The notes beneath the pieces were generated by a model, which saw nothing but the letters and a program-made list of their open reading frames with translations, was not told where the DNA came from and searched no databases. The translations under genes and the position numbers were made by a program. From a virus (taxonomy: Duplodnaviria; Caudoviricetes): a DNA stretch of 32,059 bases. The stretch spans positions 1-32,059 of IMG/VR virus record IMGVR_UViG_3300025543_000123. One strand, written 5' to 3'. Positions 1 to 24,559 of the stretch are shown one piece after another (the stretch's first letter is position 1; every line of letters starts with the position of its first letter).

Positions 1-44
1 CACATATGATAATACTTATTTTAAAATAAGTATTATCATATGTG
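1..44. repeat. Perfect 44-bp palindrome at contig start (probable fold-back artefact)
   Basis: CACATATGATAATACTTATTTT|AAAATAAGTATTATCATATGTG; bases 1-17 are absent from the second copy of this locus at about 31920-31960. Confidence 0.9.
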
Positions 45-143
45 GTGCACTTTTTTTTAGTTGTGCATCTAGAAAAGTAGATATAAATAAAACAGAAATA
101 AAAAAAGATAGTTTAGTTGAAAAATTAATTACTATTAAAGATA
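18..143 (+). repeat. Terminal direct repeat, copy 1 (126 bp)
   Basis: Identical to 31934-32059; implies a circular or terminally redundant genome of 31,916 bp. Confidence 0.95.
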
Positions 144-496
144 CTATTTCAGAAAAAAAAGAATCTAAAATTAATTATAGTATATTTTCAGATATAAATG
201 AAATAACTATTAAACCAATAGACACATCAAAAGCAATTGAAATAAACGGTATTAAATACAAAAACGTTGTTTTAAGCGTTAAAAATAGTAAAGTTAATAG
301 TTTATACAATAAAGAAGAAATAACATCTAAAAACGTGTCTAAAATAACAACTGAAAAGAATAAGACACATTTAACAACTAAAGAAAATATAAAAGAAAAA
401 AAAGTAAATAAAAAAGCAAATTATTTTGTTTATTTATGGTTACTTATTTTACCATTAATTTATTTTTTATATCGGTCAATTAAGTTTAAAGCATAA
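20..496 (+). CDS. Putative unimolecular spanin / lysis lipoprotein, main part (gene starts at 31930 and crosses the junction; about 160 aa)
   Basis: MNFKISIIICGALFFS-C lipobox, Lys/Thr-rich middle, C-terminal TM YFVYLWLLILPLIYFLY then basic tail; downstream of lysozyme; missed by the ORF track. Confidence 0.7.
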   Translation, partial: FKISIIICGALFFSCASRKVDINKTEIKKDSLVEKLITIKDTISEKKESKINYSIFSDINEITIKPIDTSKAIEINGIKYKNVVLSVKNSKVNSLYNKEEITSKNVSKITTEKNKTHLTTKENIKEKKVNKKANYFVYLWLLILPLIYFLYRSIKFKA

Positions 497-669
497 TTTT
501 CCCTAAAATTTTTGTTCGCTTATTTTAATTTATTTTTGTTTACTTATTTTAAATATATTTTTTAGTTATTTATTTAGTTTTTAAGAACATTACAAATTTA
601 CAGTTTTTTTTTGACAAAATTGCAATGATTTAAATAAAGTTATTAACCGAAATGTTTAAAACGTAATAT

Positions 670-677
670 TACATTTG
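670..677 (+). promoter_or_regulatory. Bacteroidota-type -7 promoter element TACATTTG
   Basis: Matches TAnnTTTG immediately upstream of the NinG-like gene. Confidence 0.45.
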
Positions 678-680
678 TAT

Positions 681-1055
681 ATGAAGAAACCTACTCGTAA
701 ATCTTTAGTTACAAAACTAGATACTGTGTTTAGTCAATACATAAGACGCAAGGATGCGGTGAATGATATTGCTGAGTGTATTACTTGTGGTAAAAAAGAC
801 CATTATAAAAAATTGCAATGTGGTCATTTTATGAGTAGAAGACATTACTCTACTAGATGGGATGAGAATAATGTTGGTGTTCAATGTTATGGTTGCAACA
901 TCACTAATCAGGGTCAACAATATATTTTTAGTCAATATCTTGGTAATAACTTATCTGAAGAAATGTATTTAAAATCAAAACAAATAGTTAAATTTGCTGA
1001 TGTAGATTTAATTGATATGATTGATTATTATACTGAAAAGGTTTCTATGTTATAA
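681..1055 (+). CDS. NinG/Rap-family recombination endonuclease
   Basis: CITCG...QCGHFMSRRHYSTRWDENNVGVQCYGCN zinc/HNH-like pattern; ATG at 681 preferred to TTG at 675. Confidence 0.85.
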   Translation: MKKPTRKSLVTKLDTVFSQYIRRKDAVNDIAECITCGKKDHYKKLQCGHFMSRRHYSTRWDENNVGVQCYGCNITNQGQQYIFSQYLGNNLSEEMYLKSKQIVKFADVDLIDMIDYYTEKVSML

Positions 1056-1080
1056 AATTCTTTCTTTCCTGTTTTAATAT

Positions 1081-1167
1081 GAATAGCATTAGTAGCCACC
1101 GCTCGAAGGGTAATAAATAAGAAGCTACTTTAATATATTGTGGCCGAAATCGCAGTATAATCTATTC
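1081..1167 (+). ncRNA. Candidate structured RNA (three-way junction)
   Basis: GAATAG/CTATTC closing stem, AGTAGC/GCTACT stem, TATATTGTGG/TCGCAGTATA stem with G-U pairs; non-coding and GC-richer than its flanks. Confidence 0.35.
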
Positions 1168-1182
1168 GACTTTTGTTTGTTG

Positions 1183-1209
1183 AAAGCCCCTTTAATTAGG
1201 GGTTTTTTT
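1183..1209 (+). terminator. Intrinsic terminator
   Basis: GCCCCT-TTAATT-AGGGGT followed by a T tract. Confidence 0.85.
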
Positions 1210-1223
1210 ATGCTTAAAAAGTT

Positions 1224-1280
1224 TTAACAAAATTTTAACAAAATTTAAAAATCAATATGTTTAAATATGTTGTATATTTA
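1224..1280 (+). promoter_or_regulatory. Early promoter in front of the cassette array (TTAACA-N5-TTAACA box plus TATATTTA)
   Basis: Same architecture and spacing as 3453-3509, and the same AAACAAATAGAAATTATG leader. Confidence 0.65.
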
Positions 1281-1307
1281 CACCATAGAAATAAACAAAT
1301 AGAAATT

Positions 1308-1535
1308 ATGAAATCAGCAATGAATCAATTAGAAAAATGGATTTTAGATTACGAAAAAGTAAATGGATCTCCAACAATGTGCGAAATTAAATCACAATTA
1401 GAAATGTTTAAAGAAGTTGAAAAATAACAAATTTTTGATGCTTATGATGCTGGAAATGATTTTGATGGAGATTGGGAAGCAGAAGAAAATTATTATAAAG
1501 AAACATTTGGCGACAATATAGAAGCTGGAATATAA
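1308..1535 (+). pseudogene. Cassette A gene with in-frame TAA at 1425-1427; paralogue of 2003-2254
   Basis: MKSA...EK*QIFDAY...AEENYYKETF...EAGI aligns with MKTA...EKQQIMDAR...AEEYYKNTY...QAGI. Confidence 0.75.
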
Positions 1536-1575
1536 CGGATAGCCGCTATAATTTCAGCGTGGAATTATGTAAACT
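1533..1575. repeat. attC-like element 1 (degenerate or truncated)
   Basis: GAATATAAC-GGA left end identical to element 3; only a short ATAATTTC/GGAATTAT hairpin and no intact GTT. Confidence 0.5.
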
Positions 1576-1602
1576 GAACTGCATTTAAAAAACAAAAATA
1601 TT

Positions 1603-1836
1603 ATGAAAGTAAATGGAACAGAATATGGTTTTTCAATTTTTCCTAGCTATGGAAAAGTACAGGCTGAGATATACAAGGTATCTAGTTATAAATTAGATGT
1701 AGAAATGAATATGCATATAAGACTTTTAAATAAAGATTTCGGATCTATTTTTAGAAGTCCAAATGAAAACGATTATAAAAACGCTAGAAAATGGGTTGAT
1801 ATACAAATGAAGTCTATTTTAGACGCTAACGCTTAA
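1603..1836 (+). CDS. Cassette B hypothetical protein
   Basis: 77-aa ORF followed by CTTGCTGTTAAC left end of element 2. Confidence 0.75.
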   Translation: MKVNGTEYGFSIFPSYGKVQAEIYKVSSYKLDVEMNMHIRLLNKDFGSIFRSPNENDYKNARKWVDIQMKSILDANA

Positions 1837-1845
1837 TCTTGCTGT

Positions 1846-1974
1846 TAACGGAATCGCATAACAGAAGTTACGGATAAGTAAATCCTGAAACTCCAAATTA
1901 AAGACTAATAAAACCAAGTACAAACTAAACATTAAATTAATCAACCAAGCCGTAATTACTGTTATGCAGTGTTA
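1846..1974. repeat. attC-like element 2 (129 bp)
   Basis: TAAC-GGAATC-GCATAACAGAAGTTACGG...CCGTAATTACTGTTATGC-AGT-GTTA. Confidence 0.85.
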
Positions 1975-2002
1975 TATTCTTGGCTTTTTAAACGCAAACA
2001 TT

Positions 2003-2254
2003 ATGAAAACAGCAGGACAAGATTTTTTAGAATGGTATAACTATTACGTAAAAAAATACGGATGCTCTCCAAGTGATTACGATGTGAACTATTTTTGGAA
2101 CGGAGGTAATTTAGAAAAAGAAAAACAGCAAATTATGGACGCTAGAATAGACGGAGTTACTAAAAGTTTAGCATTGCCACCTAGTTATTCTATTAAAAAC
2201 GCAGAGGAGTACTACAAGAATACGTATATCGACTCCAACCAAGCTGGAATATAA
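2003..2254 (+). CDS. Cassette C hypothetical protein (alternative in-frame ATG at 1964 lies inside element 2)
   Basis: A-rich leader before ATG 2003; the stop TAA forms the TAAC of element 3. Confidence 0.8.
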   Translation: MKTAGQDFLEWYNYYVKKYGCSPSDYDVNYFWNGGNLEKEKQQIMDARIDGVTKSLALPPSYSIKNAEEYYKNTYIDSNQAGI

Positions 2255-2373
2255 CGGAAGGTTGCTTGGCATCTGTTGCCGATAACGTGAACGGAATTAT
2301 GAAAAATAAATTTAATATTACCAGCGGATTTTCAGCTGAAAAACTAAACGGCAATAGTGCCAAACAACTGTTA
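2252..2373. repeat. attC-like element 3 (122 bp)
   Basis: TAAC-GGAAG-GTTGCTTGGCATCTGTTGCCG...CGGCAATAGTGCCAAACAAC-T-GTTA. Confidence 0.85.
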
Positions 2374-2391
2374 ACAACTGTAATTTTATGA
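2299..2391 (+). CDS. Putative 30-aa leader peptide encoded within element 3
   Basis: MKNKFNITSGFSAEKLNGNSAKQLLTTVIL*; TGA overlaps ATG 2388 (ATGA). Confidence 0.5.
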   Translation: MKNKFNITSGFSAEKLNGNSAKQLLTTVIL

Positions 2392-2693
2392 AAACATCAT
2401 TTTGGATTTTATTTAGTCTATTCTTTATTATTTATAGCTCTAAACCAACATTAAGTATTAAACCATTTGCAATTAGTTTTGAATCTCCTTACACACCATT
2501 CGGTATAATTTTTCTAATACTTTCTCTCAGTTGCTTTCAGTTACAAACAAGAAAAGATACAAAAAAAGAATTAATAAAAACTTACTACGTTGAAGGAATA
2601 AATGACGGATTTGATAAGGCTGTTGAATCAATTAATTTAGAACTAAAAAAACAAGGTAAAGAATCAAAGATAATAATTGAAAGCAACAACTAG
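2388..2693 (+). CDS. Cassette D membrane protein
   Basis: Two hydrophobic segments (FWILFSLFFIIY; FGIIFLILSLSCF). Confidence 0.8.
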   Translation: MKTSFWILFSLFFIIYSSKPTLSIKPFAISFESPYTPFGIIFLILSLSCFQLQTRKDTKKELIKTYYVEGINDGFDKAVESINLELKKQGKESKIIIESNN

Positions 2694-2706
2694 CTATTAT
2701 AGTTGT

Positions 2707-2831
2707 TAACGGAAGGTATCCTTGCTTAGTGGCTGAATTAAAACTATTGCAAACAAATATAAACTAATCATTAAATGCAAAAATTATGAGTAAAGAAAAA
2801 ACAAATGAGCCATTATGCAAGACTGATGTTA
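2707..2831. repeat. attC-like element 4 (125 bp)
   Basis: TAAC-GGAAGGTATC-CTTGCTTAGTGGCT...AGCCATTATGCAAG-ACTGAT-GTTA. Confidence 0.8.
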
Positions 2832-2923
2832 ACAAATTGGTTTGCAAGCACTGTGGTAACAAATTATGCCCAAGTCAAACATTTAATGAGGAATGTTTCA
2901 AGTGTGGTAAAAAGCCTTTGTAG
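2786..2923 (+). CDS. Cassette E 45-aa zinc-ribbon protein starting inside element 4
   Basis: MSKEKTNEPLCKTDV|NKLVCKHCGNKLCPSQTFNEECFKCGKKPL*, two CxxC pairs. Confidence 0.7.
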   Translation: MSKEKTNEPLCKTDVNKLVCKHCGNKLCPSQTFNEECFKCGKKPL

Positions 2924-2935
2924 CAAACTGTTTGT

Positions 2936-3061
2936 TAACGTTCATTATTGTAGCAGTTAAGGAAAAGTACACCTTATGCTTCGATTAAAGACCAAATTTT
3001 AAAAGTACAAAACAATAATCAAATTAATAACCAAAGCCTTAATTGCTACAATATATTGTTG
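2936..3061. repeat. attC-like element 5 (126 bp)
   Basis: TAAC-GTTCAT-TATTGTAGCAGTTAAGG...CCTTAATTGCTACAATA-TATT-GTTG. Confidence 0.85.
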
Positions 3062-3088
3062 TAGGTAGGTTTTTTAACACCACTAATT

Positions 3089-3340
3089 ATGACACCAAAA
3101 GAAGAAGCACAAGATTTAATAGACAAAATGACGATGGAAATAGGTAAATTTAACGCTAAACAATGTGCGTTAATTGCTGTTAATGAAATAATAAAATACC
3201 ACGAATCATTATTTGATAAAGGATTTAAAGATATTCATATTGCACTTTCATCGCCAATAAAAACTTATCTAGATATTATGAATCCTTTATTAAAACACCT
3301 GATAGAAGTAAGAGAAGAATTAAAAAACCTACCTGCGTAA
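3089..3340 (+). CDS. Cassette F hypothetical phage protein
   Basis: 83-aa ORF MTPKEEA...AKQCALIAVNEII. Confidence 0.8.
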   Translation: MTPKEEAQDLIDKMTMEIGKFNAKQCALIAVNEIIKYHESLFDKGFKDIHIALSSPIKTYLDIMNPLLKHLIEVREELKNLPA

Positions 3341-3371
3341 CTTTGGCACCAAAGTTGAGCAAACTTACCTA

Positions 3372-3447
3372 CAACTGCTAATATCGTATAAGCGTAGTAA
3401 ATTTATAAATTATAAAAAGTCTTATTTATTACGTTTATACTAAGTTA
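3372..3447. repeat. attC-like element 6 (76 bp, terminal)
   Basis: CAAC-TGCTAATATC-GTATAAGCGTAGTAAAT...ATTTATTACGTTTATAC-TAA-GTTA. Confidence 0.7.
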
Positions 3448-3452
3448 TAAAA

Positions 3453-3509
3453 TTAACAAAATATTAACAGTTTTAAATAACCAATATTTAAAAAACATTT
3501 ATATATTTG
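3453..3509 (+). promoter_or_regulatory. Early promoter (TTAACA-N5-TTAACA box plus TATATTTG)
   Basis: TAnnTTTG at 3502-3509; direct repeat at 3453-3469. Confidence 0.75.
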
Positions 3510-3536
3510 TACTCAACAAACAAACAAATAGAAATT

Positions 3537-3626
3537 ATGAAAAACAATTTAAAAGATTTCGGAGCATCATTAGTATTTATGTTTATACTAATAACATTAT
3601 ACACAACTTTAATATCACTAATATAA
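3537..3626 (+). CDS. 29-aa hydrophobic peptide
   Basis: MKNNLKDFGASLVFMFILITLYTTLISLI*; first ORF after the promoter, TAATG-coupled to the next. Confidence 0.55.
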   Translation: MKNNLKDFGASLVFMFILITLYTTLISLI

Positions 3627-3805
3627 TGAAAGATTTACTAGATTTCCAAAGGTTTCAAATCCAAAGTTTGCAAAATAGAATATGTGAACTTGAAAATCAA
3701 AACAACATTCTTACTGAATACATTTTTGAAGCTTTAGACGAACAATGTACGCAAGAATATAAGACTATAATAAAAAAAGAAATTTACACCTTAAAACAAC
3801 CTTAA
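3626..3805 (+). CDS. Hypothetical protein (59 aa)
   Basis: MKDLLDFQRFQIQSLQ...; fills the gap, coupled to neighbours. Confidence 0.65.
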   Translation: MKDLLDFQRFQIQSLQNRICELENQNNILTEYIFEALDEQCTQEYKTIIKKEIYTLKQP

Positions 3806-3806
3806 A

Positions 3807-4088
3807 ATGAAAAAAGTTTTATTTTCAGCAATTATTATAACAACGTTATTTAGTTGCACAAATAATGAGTTAATACAAGAGGATTGTAGTTGTGATGAAA
3901 TAGTAAGTAAAAAAGTTTCTGCTGATTATGGTTCTAATCCAAGAGTAATAGTTTTATATCACACAAAAAATTATTGTTCAAATGTAGAAAAAGATTTTAA
4001 TTTAGTAATCGACGCAACTTACTCAGGAGTAATTAATGCGTTAAATGATTCTAGGATTCAAGAAATAGGTAAATGTTATAAAAAATAA
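3807..4088 (+). CDS. Putative lipoprotein
   Basis: MKKVLFSAIIITTLFS-C lipobox, additional Cys residues. Confidence 0.75.
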   Translation: MKKVLFSAIIITTLFSCTNNELIQEDCSCDEIVSKKVSADYGSNPRVIVLYHTKNYCSNVEKDFNLVIDATYSGVINALNDSRIQEIGKCYKK

Positions 4089-4093
4089 ATAAA

Positions 4094-4651
4094 ATGGAAA
4101 ATATGTTATTACAAGAAAAATTATCAATTATTCAAAAAGAATTTAAAGCAAACAAATCAAAATTTAACAGTTTTGGTAAATATAACTTTAGAAGTGCTGA
4201 GGATATATTAGAAGCCTTAAAGCCTTTTAATGAAAAGTATAAAGTTAGTTTTATTATTAAAGAAAAAATGATTAGTTTTGACCCTCCAATTATGTTATCT
4301 GAAGCTATTATTTACGATAATAATGGAGTAAATGAATTATCAGCATCAGCAGTAGTTGGTATCGACTTAGAACAGAAAGGAATGCAAATGCCACAAAAAT
4401 ATGGTTCTGCTAGTTCTTACGCTAAGAAATACGCATTAGGTAACTTACTATTAATTGATGACACACAAGACCCTGATGCAAGTAATAAGCACGACAAAAC
4501 AGAATCAAAAACAGATGATAAAAAATGGTTAAATAAAAATACACCTGAATTTAAAAAAGCAGTTGAATATTTAAAAAATGGTGGTAATATTGTAACCATT
4601 GAATCTAAATATAAAATGACTAAAGAAGTCAAAGAAGAGTTAACTAAATAA
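4094..4651 (+). CDS. ERF-family single-strand annealing recombinase
   Basis: FNSFGKYNFRSAEDILEALKP and GSASSYAKKYALGNLLLIDDTQDPD motifs. Confidence 0.9.
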   Translation: MENMLLQEKLSIIQKEFKANKSKFNSFGKYNFRSAEDILEALKPFNEKYKVSFIIKEKMISFDPPIMLSEAIIYDNNGVNELSASAVVGIDLEQKGMQMPQKYGSASSYAKKYALGNLLLIDDTQDPDASNKHDKTESKTDDKKWLNKNTPEFKKAVEYLKNGGNIVTIESKYKMTKEVKEELTK

Positions 4652-4712
4652 TAATAACTGAAAAGCTGACAACAGTAAAAAAAGGTAAGCAAAGTAAATA
4701 AAAATAAATATT

Positions 4713-22652: not shown

Positions 22653-23204
22653 ATGGCTTTAGTATATCAACATTTAAAACCTAGTGGAGAAGTTTTTTAT
22701 ATTGGAATAGGAATATCTAAAAAAAGAGCATATTCTAAATATGGTAGAAATAAACATTGGAGTAATACGGTTAATAAATATGGTTATGAAGTTCAAATTT
22801 TAACTAATAATATTAACTATGAGTTTGCAAAAGAAATAGAAAAAAACTTAATTTCTTATTATGGAAGAAAAGATTTAGAAAGAGGTAAATTAGTAAATAT
22901 GACAGATGGAGGAGAGGGTTTTCTAAATATGAATCCAGAAGAGAGATTAAAAAGAAAAATAAAATTAACAAATTATAATAAAAATATAAAAGATTACTCT
23001 TTCACTCAAGACGAAACTTATAAATTAAATATGAGAAAGTCTTGTTTAGGAAAAAATAATAAAAAAATAATAGATATAGAAACTAAAATGATTTTTAAAT
23101 CAATGCGAGAAGCATCTGAATTTAGTAAAATAAATTACACAATATTAAGTGGTATGTTAAATAATAAAAAAATTAATAAAACAAATTTAAGATGGCAGAA
23201 TTAG
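22653..23204 (+). CDS. Free-standing GIY-YIG-like homing endonuclease
   Basis: VYQH...FYIGIG...RAY, LVNMTDGGEG, C-terminal NUMOD1-like FKSMREAS. Confidence 0.8.
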   Translation: MALVYQHLKPSGEVFYIGIGISKKRAYSKYGRNKHWSNTVNKYGYEVQILTNNINYEFAKEIEKNLISYYGRKDLERGKLVNMTDGGEGFLNMNPEERLKRKIKLTNYNKNIKDYSFTQDETYKLNMRKSCLGKNNKKIIDIETKMIFKSMREASEFSKINYTILSGMLNNKKINKTNLRWQN

Positions 23205-23785
23205 AAACAATAGAATTGTATATTGATGAAAACATAGAGAAAGAAGGTATTGATGCTCTTAGCTTGGTTAAATTTCCAGCAATAGAAGAAAATTGGGTGG
23301 CATTAAATAATCATAGAATTGAGTTTAAATCGGTTGATGAAGAAAAAAGAATAATTATAGGATTAGCTTTAGTTCCAGATAAATTAATTTATAGAAGAAA
23401 TGGAGAACACGAATATAATATTAAGTTTTCAAAAGAAACTGTAAAAAAAGCGGGTCAATTATATTTAAAAAGACTAAACAATAATAATGCTACATTAGAG
23501 CATACTACAAATGTAAAAGGAGTATCGGTTGTGGAATCTTGGATTGTAGAAAATCCATTATTAGATAAAACTGCTATTTATAATTTAAATGCGGTTGAAG
23601 GGGCTTGGGCAGTAATTATGAGTATTGACAATGATAAAGTTTGGGAAGAAATAAAAAACGGAACTTATTTAGGAATAAGTGTCGAAGGATATTTTTCGGA
23701 CAAACTAGAAATGAGTTTACAAGCTGAAAAAGAAAATGAATTAATAGAAAAAATAAAATCAATAATTTTAAAAAATGGCAAATAA
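23192..23785 (+). CDS. Prohead protease (XkdF-like)
   Basis: EEKRIIIGLALVPD, LEH, VESW, W..IK.G...GISVEG. Confidence 0.85.
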   Translation: MAELETIELYIDENIEKEGIDALSLVKFPAIEENWVALNNHRIEFKSVDEEKRIIIGLALVPDKLIYRRNGEHEYNIKFSKETVKKAGQLYLKRLNNNNATLEHTTNVKGVSVVESWIVENPLLDKTAIYNLNAVEGAWAVIMSIDNDKVWEEIKNGTYLGISVEGYFSDKLEMSLQAEKENELIEKIKSIILKNGK

Positions 23786-23960
23786 AACAAGTTCACCAAA
23801 AGGTGGAAAAAGAGGATGTCTTTGTAAAGATGGTAAATACAGTCAAAAATGTTGCAATGGTGAACTATCTGAACAAGGTATAGGTTCATTAATTCAGCAA
23901 CAAAACTCAACTATTACAGTAATAGATGGAGTACGTACAACAGTTAGAAGTAATGGCTAA
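23775..23960 (+). CDS. Small Cys-rich protein
   Basis: RGCLCKDGKYSQKCCNG. Confidence 0.7.
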   Translation: MANKTSSPKGGKRGCLCKDGKYSQKCCNGELSEQGIGSLIQQQNSTITVIDGVRTTVRSNG

Positions 23961-23966
23961 TTTATA

Positions 23967-23988
23967 ACAAAAATAAATAACATTAATT
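23967..23988 (+). promoter_or_regulatory. Putative late promoter ACAA-N13-TAATT
   Basis: One-mismatch copy 19 bp before ATG 24008. Confidence 0.55.
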
Positions 23989-24007
23989 AATATAAAAAAA
24001 TACACTT

Positions 24008-24559
24008 ATGAGCGTAATAAATGAAATTAAAACACTTTTGGGAATGGAGGTAAAACTTGCCCAAATGAAACTAATGGATGGAGTGACTGTTATTGAAGCA
24101 GATTCTTTTCAATTAGATAATGCAGTATTTATTGTAAATGGCGAGGAAAGAGTTCCAATGCCTATTGGTGAATACGAATTAGAAGATGGTAATATCTTAA
24201 AGGTAGATGTTGAGGGAATCATTGCTGCAATTGAACCAGCTACTGAGGAAGAGCCTGCTAATGAAGAACCATTGGCTACTCCTGCTGAACAAGAAATGGA
24301 AGCAGAACCTAATGCGCCTAAAAAAATTGTTGAATCAGTTTCTAAAGAGATTTTCTTTGCAGAAATTGAAAAATTAAGAACTGAAATTGCTGAATTAAAA
24401 TTAGCAAAAGAAGTTATTAAAGAAGAATTAAGTGCAGATGTAGTTGTTGAACCATTAACACATTCACCTGAAACTAAGTCGGAAGTTAAATTAAACAAAA
24501 TATCAACTAATCGCCAAATGACTACTCAAGATAGAGTTATGGCACAACTTTTTAAATAA
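24008..24559 (+). CDS. Capsid scaffolding protein (putative)
   Basis: Acidic with coiled coil; between protease and capsid. Confidence 0.7.
   Translation: MSVINEIKTLLGMEVKLAQMKLMDGVTVIEADSFQLDNAVFIVNGEERVPMPIGEYELEDGNILKVDVEGIIAAIEPATEEEPANEEPLATPAEQEMEAEPNAPKKIVESVSKEIFFAEIEKLRTEIAELKLAKEVIKEELSADVVVEPLTHSPETKSEVKLNKISTNRQMTTQDRVMAQLFK

Follow-up and report, generated by a model that had tools for sequence, protein, structure and literature searches.

How does a small phage come to carry a run of short genes separated by long hairpins, when no tyrosine recombinase is detected in its own genome? The question is raised by positions 1,308 to 3,447 of the virus record IMGVR_UViG_3300025543_000123 (Caudoviricetes), the whole of which (32,059 nucleotides (nt), estimated completeness 98%) is called the window here. 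A first-pass annotation, made from the letters of this DNA, had described the locus as an integron-like cassette array forming a phage-borne system for acquiring and shuffling early genes. Sequence comparison gives us good confidence that the array consists of single-gene cassettes, each with its hairpin first, that were stacked 5' of a fixed acceptor, and that it was likely built by an Xer-like recombinase acting in trans, from the host or from a larger co-infecting phage.

The strongest signal lies in the ends of the units. The bases 3' of each GTT are the exact reverse complement of the bases 5' of the next AAC, over 9, 10, 9 and 10 nt in the 4/4 intact units, with a joint chance of about 1e-14 for these pre-specified consecutive pairs. 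Complementary ends imply that both ends of each gene are part of one unit, as for a cassette that was once circular. The array and its borders read as follows.

1182..1207, + strand: intrinsic-terminator-like hairpin ending the upstream (ninG) unit, conserved in the related locus L082.
1224..1313, + strand: promoter-like repeat copy 1, with TATATTTA at 1273-1280, fused to the start codon of open reading frame (ORF) 1.
1308..1535, + strand: ORF1, a decayed unit with no heading hairpin and an in-frame TAA at 1425-1427.
1534..1600, + strand: E0, a truncated hairpin, left arm only (AAC at 1534); there is no GTT to match the end of unit 2.
1603..1836, + strand: ORF2, 77 aa, no family.
1847..1973, + strand: hairpin E1 (AAC 1847, GTT 1971, 127 nt), heading unit 1849-2254.
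2003..2254, + strand: ORF3, 83 aa, viral hypothetical family, similar to ORF1.
2253..2372, + strand: hairpin E2 (AAC 2253, GTT 2370, 120 nt), heading unit 2255-2709.
2388..2693, + strand: ORF4, 101 aa, N-terminal half hydrophobic, no family.
2708..2830, + strand: hairpin E3 (AAC 2708, GTT 2828, 123 nt), heading unit 2710-2938; its loop contains the ORF5 start codon.
2786..2923, + strand: ORF5, 45 aa, two CxxC pairs, running through the right arm of E3.
2937..3060, + strand: hairpin E4 (AAC 2937, GTT 3058, 124 nt), heading unit 2939-3374.
3089..3340, + strand: ORF6, 83 aa, phrog_21441 (unknown function).
3373..3446, + strand: E5, the fixed acceptor (attI-position) site, a short hairpin (AAC 3373, GTT 3444, 74 nt).
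3453..3542, + strand: promoter-like repeat copy 2, with TATATTTG at 3502-3509, placed in front of the backbone erf/ssb unit.

The six co-oriented ORFs and five elements of the first-pass annotation were found again in their places. Ownership is reversed: each ORF had been given the element that follows it, and the hairpin belongs to the next gene. Four of the five intact elements hold up as cassette sites, the short fifth being the acceptor. Non-consecutive unit ends match over up to 8 nt, only among three similar flanks, and over 9 nt for E0, the flank of which is identical to that of E2. A loose hairpin score by itself is weak, giving 7 other + strand matches in the window. It is the complementarity of the ends that carries weight: when the window and 173 loci were searched for chains of two hairpins with at least 8 nt of complementarity, only array-like stretches were picked out. 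On this evidence the unit order is hairpin-then-gene, with the predicted crossover at AAC and not at the top-strand GTT, where it had first been placed; the breakpoints described below lie at AAC. Genes and hairpins also have a preferred relation, viral ORFs being sense to the hairpin in 224/235 units and host ORFs antisense in 56/69. The layout in which a gene precedes its attC site is thus inverted in the phage cassettes and classical for the host genes. A hairpin at L030:8303-8500 has a loop of about 140 nt that contains the start and first half of its own ORF.

E5 has the properties of a docking site. E5-type sites were found in 17 distinct contexts, two of them near-copies, by a pattern scan added to earlier loci; the sequence is constant from the AAC onward and variable upstream. 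Fifteen contexts are upstream of ssb and two at the position seen in the window; in L168 an additional copy lies upstream of erf. The site occupies three backbone positions in the family of the window phage. Within distinct erf-ssb regions it is present in 13/107, a count enriched by the search. The acceptor is empty in L160, L167 and L168. L162 and L167 share an identical 23 nt of the erf end plus the AAC, after which L162 has about 1 kb of cassettes and then the site. Because of this empty and filled pair, new units are taken to enter at the acceptor AAC, hairpin first. A core of AAC-N5-TATA recurs at 31/37 viral and 12/14 host array ends next to a recombinase (such terminal sites being definable in 37/80 viral and 14/30 host loci). 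The same core is in 16/17 E5-type sites, the one exception being that of the window, and in 0/251 cassette hairpins. The E5 pattern required TATA and the hairpin set was selected for an AACG start, so these last two counts partly reflect how the sets were chosen, and nothing but the 5-nt spacing was free to vary. The array thus has what integrons have in a fixed acceptor: empty and filled sites, breakpoints at AAC, and a core shared with recombinase-adjacent sites, the window's own copy being out of register. The commonest E5 spacer is closer to phage than to host sites (-1.2 vs -4.6), which does not hold for the other spacers.

The hairpins are conserved in fold and variable in sequence, as the first-pass annotation had proposed. 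Inner stems of the five window elements are 13-18 bp and ungapped, and the AAC-side spacer is the longer one in 5/5, again as proposed. In a set of 18 hairpins chosen for having stems, the cognate arm was the best partner in 17/18 (mean -16.3 vs -7.5 kcal/mol), and 0/100,000 permutations were as good. A larger set of 108 non-redundant hairpins was picked by a sequence-only model, R1; the tests for covariation were arm swapping and pairing in fixed registers. In one ungapped register, 5 nt after AAC and 1 nt before GTT, 60% of positions pair; the figure is 22-34% when the register is slid and 36% (at most 39%) when arms are shuffled. Most positions show all four pair types, while pair 5 is often a C-A mismatch and pair 14 often G-T. 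Bulges are seen in individual hairpins, with no conserved one identified. MAFFT with RNAalifold recovered no pairs in these hairpins because the arms misregister, and R1 was therefore built from sequence only. When both strands were folded, the AAC-first strand (gene-sense here) was the better folder in 211/232 viral and 56/69 host hairpins. Loops are A-rich and, in viral hairpins, 60% purine, and minimum free energy folds of whole elements regain the full hairpin in some cases only. The flanks depart from the integron core RYYYAAC/GTTRRRY, as had been noted: it is found in 0/5 window elements (GTT flank RRRY likewise 0/5), and RRRY follows GTT in 26/235 viral and 4/69 host units.

Comparison of relatives indicates cassette gain and replacement at this position. 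We recruited 153 loci by Erf or NinG; 138 have both genes and represent 114 distinct regions. The gap between the two genes is 333-1130 nt in 112/114, 1656 in L112, which has a small array, and 3042 in the window and a near-identical phage. L003 (backbone identity 92-95%) and L082 (83-93%) carry other cassettes where the window has its array. The match of L003 to the window resumes exactly at AAC 3373, and that of L082 to the ORF1 region stops just past an AAC. In contigs of four runs (four studies), cassette depth is 0.5-13 in several bins vs roughly 40-100 on the flanks. Contigs of run X5 have breakpoints at 2252 and 3382, and contigs X5 and X8 join at 3382, in register. The acceptor-distal hairpin is truncated in four arrays (window, L082, L112 and L168), as expected if it is the oldest, and the E0 arrangement recurs in record 2 of run X3. 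The TAA codon of ORF1 (1425-1427) corresponds to Gln in an intact homologue that L082 carries within its array, where it follows a right arm of the E1 type. E2 is 92% identical to a hairpin of the cultured phage hattifnatt9-1 (window 2261-2373) and 87% to one of L271, a phage that bears a recombinase, and a search for relatives of ORF3 returned only the near-identical phage and four weak matches. The proposed acquisition and shuffling is thus borne out for gain and replacement; neither excised circles nor a changed order of the same cassettes came to light.

The sites are phage-borne, as first proposed; the enzyme is not encoded by the window phage. There is no match to PF00589 (tyrosine recombinase) in the 98%-complete window, and control genomes were positive in 14/14 cases. 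The window phage hence has no integrase gene in cis of the kind that defines a classical integron. Three further members of its family with arrays (97-100% complete) also have no recombinase, and none was found in hattifnatt9-1 with its chain of seven hairpins. Within 8 kb, none of the viral recombinase loci has core genes in common with the window; the enzyme occurs in 0 of L001-L173. With no recombinase of its own, the window phage likely borrows one from its host or from larger phages.

Such enzymes were found beside arrays in both places. R1 was scanned against 151 genomes of the phylum of one Chitinophagaceae bin and matched in 51; a pattern scan of a single genome collection was overly tight, with 2 matches. 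Host genome G013 has 23 hairpins in 19 kb, with 9-10 nt of complementarity at 22/22 junctions and a tyrosine recombinase at the head. Its genes are antisense to the hairpins. G124 and G048 are of the same kind. G013 also contains at least two sense-oriented units of the phage type, one of which encodes an Rv2179c-like exonuclease; a phage cassette, too, has a member of that family. Of 121 Chitinophagaceae genomes, 80 have relatives of the recombinase. Among the best 80 viral loci with the recombinase, hairpins stand directly upstream on the same strand in 36/80 and on the opposite strand in 0, and L271 is a full phage platform with nine hairpins, a promoter-bearing cassette and a 266-aa enzyme. 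DNA methyltransferases account for 6/60 scanned cassette proteins, mostly the longest ones; the 60 were the 50 longest of 181 plus 10 from the window phage family. Family scans gave no cargo function for the cassette ORFs of the window. In the G013 array, the end far from the acceptor has small gene pairs resembling toxin-antitoxin systems, and the G124 array contains transposase-like ORFs of 324 aa in repeated copies (L197-L201; both named by inspection). A 104-kb phage-like contig of a bacterial bin holds nine co-oriented hairpin cassettes (L207, G002:C55:99.5-103.8 kb). The chain of hattifnatt9-1 (L321, positions 1-4100) is unannotated, has 10-nt end complementarity and includes a methyltransferase cassette; the annotated gp005 falls inside a hairpin. 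The main text of the isolation paper does not contain the terms "integron" and "cassette" (PMC7077304, term search).

The array-linked enzymes form one family. In a quick tree search with 88/110 proteins, the others being left out as short, interrupted or identical, 53/58 viral recombinases fall in one branch (SH-aLRT 99). The best structural and profile matches are to the Xer family (archaeal XerA, PDB 4a8e and 5hxy; NCBIfam NF040815), and the enzymes have the R-K-H-R-H-Y motif residues. Xer recombinases act on double-stranded dif sites; the array-linked enzymes differ from them in sitting beside cassette arrays. Two plasmids carry recombinase relatives. In the Chryseobacterium plasmid L320 it is accompanied by a hairpin array and a terminal site; in the Acinetobacter plasmid L319 it lies beside tet(X5), the surroundings of which yielded neither a hairpin nor a complementary terminal site.

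The proposed mechanism starts from what can be read directly in the sequences: units, polarity, acceptor, breakpoints and the link to a single family of enzymes. If attC is a model, a circular cassette would fold on its gene-sense strand so that AAC pairs with GTT, and the folded form would present a 5-nt and a 1-nt spacer, a stem of about 18 bp and an A-rich loop. The recombinase, presumably supplied in trans, would cut within AAC (A|C, if attC is a guide) and join the end to the AAC of the acceptor. The newest unit would then adjoin the acceptor, with the oldest, decaying units at the promoter end. Inversion relative to host cassettes would let the upstream phage promoter read the genes.

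Several observations weigh against this reading. No joint indicating a circle was seen among the contigs of the four runs, though contigs cannot prove absence. In the E5 site of the window TATA follows after 11 and not 5 nt (6 extra), and it scores -10.7 vs +4.0 to +9.4 for its relatives; this off-register site may no longer take cassettes. Folding z-scores of E5 are modest (-0.5 to -4.2), and its spacer favours neither the phage nor the host enzyme cleanly. The link between gene and hairpin depends, apart from the breakpoints, on four pairs of homologous genes in different contexts (3 independent, one of these weak), all of which (4/4) share the upstream more than the downstream hairpin; it is not rigid, as three different ORFs are headed by E2-type hairpins. 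The opposite orientation was scored in 13/69 host and 11/235 viral units. Finally, site-specific recombination does not explain the chimeric, non-pairing hairpin of L082 or the truncated 5'-most hairpins. Arrays are probably also trimmed and mixed through homologous or microhomology recombination, as suggested by the L082 chimera and the fusion of ORF1 to a promoter at its start codon.

A wider reading goes beyond assembly in trans and would make the system a second, independently built integron of Bacteroidota and their phages, in which a minimal Xer-like enzyme lacking the IntI insertion works on folded single-stranded DNA hairpins and small phages freeload with a portable docking module. 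Larger lytic phages would hold complete platforms. The docking module would comprise the acceptor core, hairpin and downstream promoter, placed at several genome positions, and host and phages would trade genes, including anti-restriction methyltransferases, through one cassette pool. We regard this picture as tentative, its chances falling somewhat short of even.

The array could instead be a passive relic, its cassette blocks having been copied, with the help of recombination proteins that the phage itself encodes, out of hosts or phages that bear a recombinase, and its acceptor unused in this family. Genes for an Erf-like protein and NinG neighbour the array, a 90-nt repeat lies on both sides of it, the window acceptor is off register, and the L082 chimera, truncated first hairpins and start-codon fusion would all be at home in such a history. 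The empty and filled sites of L167 and L162 are harder to accommodate, since their flanks at the erf end are the same as far as the AAC, which points to insertion on the family backbone at that triplet. Moreover, many cassette ends adjoin this same AAC while being complementary to their own starts, and the unrelated flanks offer no homology for recombination. We therefore consider a purely passive origin improbable.

More doubtful still is that the array is a classical CALIN (a group of clustered attC sites that has no integron integrase), with sites recombined by an integrase of the IntI family. Phage CALINs are published: 17 were reported in 10,705 phage genomes, including that of the Polaribacter phage P12002L (Qi et al. 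2023, PMC9892861, accessible part). Like the arrays of the present system, the published CALINs are integrase-less cassette clusters in lytic phages, with DNA methyltransferase cargo, a description again limited to that part of the paper. The AAC/GTT cores, the hairpins and the purine-rich, better-folding recombining strand are as in attC, and among NCBIfam models TIGR02249 (integron integrase) ranks second for the linked enzymes. Their scores of 197-211 fall below its cut-off of 265, however, and neither host nor phage array-linked enzymes have the IntI-specific insertion, some 40-47 residues of VchIntIA being absent from them (two-piece alignment, 250->272 vs 182->246 and 175->209 vs 179->260). 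The rarity of RRRY after GTT and a common register that requires no bulged base also speak against a classical CALIN. In the accessible part of PMC9892861, P12002L attC1 failed with IntI1 and attC2 was recombined, so the only family-type hairpin assayed in print was not a substrate of IntI1; a single such negative is weak evidence. Taken together, we find an IntI-built array very unlikely.

P12002L (L322) has two hairpin-first arrays with 8-10 nt of end complementarity, both ending in one conserved terminal site (29239, 37265). Its attC1 is the family hairpin at 30055-30009 and attC2 the terminal site, which would account for the "divergent directions" mentioned in the accessible text of PMC9892861. 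By these features P12002L is to be placed in the same system as the window. A strict 9-of-12 register filter missed its hairpins, and the chain search recovered them. The published view differs from ours: to the extent that the accessible text sets it out, the sites are classical attC gained by off-target or illegitimate recombination, and an acceptor, a layout with inverted genes, arrays in hosts and an enzyme dedicated to the system are not mentioned in that text.

Set beside integrons as described in the accessible parts of PMC5027507, PMC4889954 and PMC9024848, the system is alike in having a tyrosine recombinase, one fixed acceptor at the enzyme-adjacent end of the array, and hairpins that are conserved in structure and variable in sequence, with AAC as the sole invariant core and a purine-rich, stabler recombining strand; in attC the bottom strand recombines and folds better (PMC5027507, same limits). 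It differs in having no IntI insertion and no RYYYAAC/GTTRRRY core, in its 5:1 asymmetric spacer, and in conserved mismatches where integrons have extrahelical bases, which are not evident here. In the phage arrays, furthermore, the genes are inverted, the newest unit would be farthest from the upstream promoter, and start codons often lie in the hairpin. The system appears to function like an integron but falls outside that class for want of the IntI insertion and core consensus. It has in part been published as phage CALIN, and what the window contributes is a clear case without a recombinase, in a family where acceptors are found both empty and filled. No description of the acceptor, inverted layout or enzyme was found in the literature searched, which excluded most subscription papers, and the accessible sections of PMC8618304, 10.1101/2024.07.02.601686 and PMC13616975 add nothing on the window's system.

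That the hairpins are RNA elements (terminators, processing sites or translation control) beside ordinary moron turnover is hardly credible: the sense strand is the better folder and 95/222 viral start codons lie inside a hairpin, so that an effect on translation is possible, but 0/5 hairpins are terminator-like on the + strand, which goes against the terminator-only role named as a refutation in the first-pass annotation, the Rfam scan gave a single chance match (E 3.6) outside the elements, host arrays have the same hairpins antisense to genes, and unit-end complementarity and AAC breakpoints are left unexplained.

If assembly by an Xer-like recombinase in trans is right, it would explain how Bacteroidota phages come by their small accessory genes with rapid turnover, namely by precise enzyme-driven capture as opposed to random mosaicism. 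It would challenge two assumptions, that Bacteroidetes are nearly integron-free and that hairpin recombination requires the IntI insertion; the accessible text of PMC9024848 has the phylum almost without complete integrons, and that of PMC4889954 dismisses recombinases without the IntI domain. The attC1 result with IntI1 would be recast as a case of the wrong enzyme, and the methyltransferase cargo points to counter-defence. The system is directly testable, with a 266-aa enzyme, defined sites and two cultured array phages (hattifnatt9-1 and P12002L), and a hairpin-specific recombinase with another site rule could serve as a tool.

Elsewhere the window has gene matches to terminase, portal, endolysin, Erf-like protein, NinG and methyltransferase. 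Window-related sequence occurs in freshwater and riverine metagenomes. The host is likely a Flavobacterium-type bacterium, because of DNA matches to Flavobacterium phages and the -7 promoter motif (PMC6847099, as far as accessible). The promoter-like stretch at 1224-1280, said to be the single promoter heading the array, exists and proves to be one copy of a 90-nt direct repeat (1224-1313 and 3453-3542, 76% identity) that brackets the array. The pre-array copy reads TATATTTA, one mismatch from the Bacteroidetes -7 consensus, and the post-array copy TATATTTG; a sigma-70 promoter scan was at chance level (16 vs 16.7). Copy 1 has a 77% match (window 1229-1316) to a promoter-bearing, two-ORF cassette, L271:6457-7002, and internal promoters of this kind may serve long arrays. 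Position alone suggests that the cassette genes are early ones.

Four minor features of the backbone were recorded. A perfect, loop-free 22-bp inverted repeat at 1-44 stands at the contig start, where L082 matches only from base 18; it is probably an assembly fold-back. Positions 1056-1172 place 117 nt between ninG and the terminator, where relatives (runs X3 and X4; L082) have 15 nt; the stretch matched no family. Matches to phrog_24921 are divided between two ORFs, 23192-23785 and 24008-24559, 5' of a 317-aa gene (window 23192-24559). A conserved motif at 4658-4692 (CTGAAWAGCTGACAACAG, an A-run and GGTAAG) lies 5' of ssb in many relatives; the motif also comes after both E5-type sites of L168 and could be a regulatory leader.

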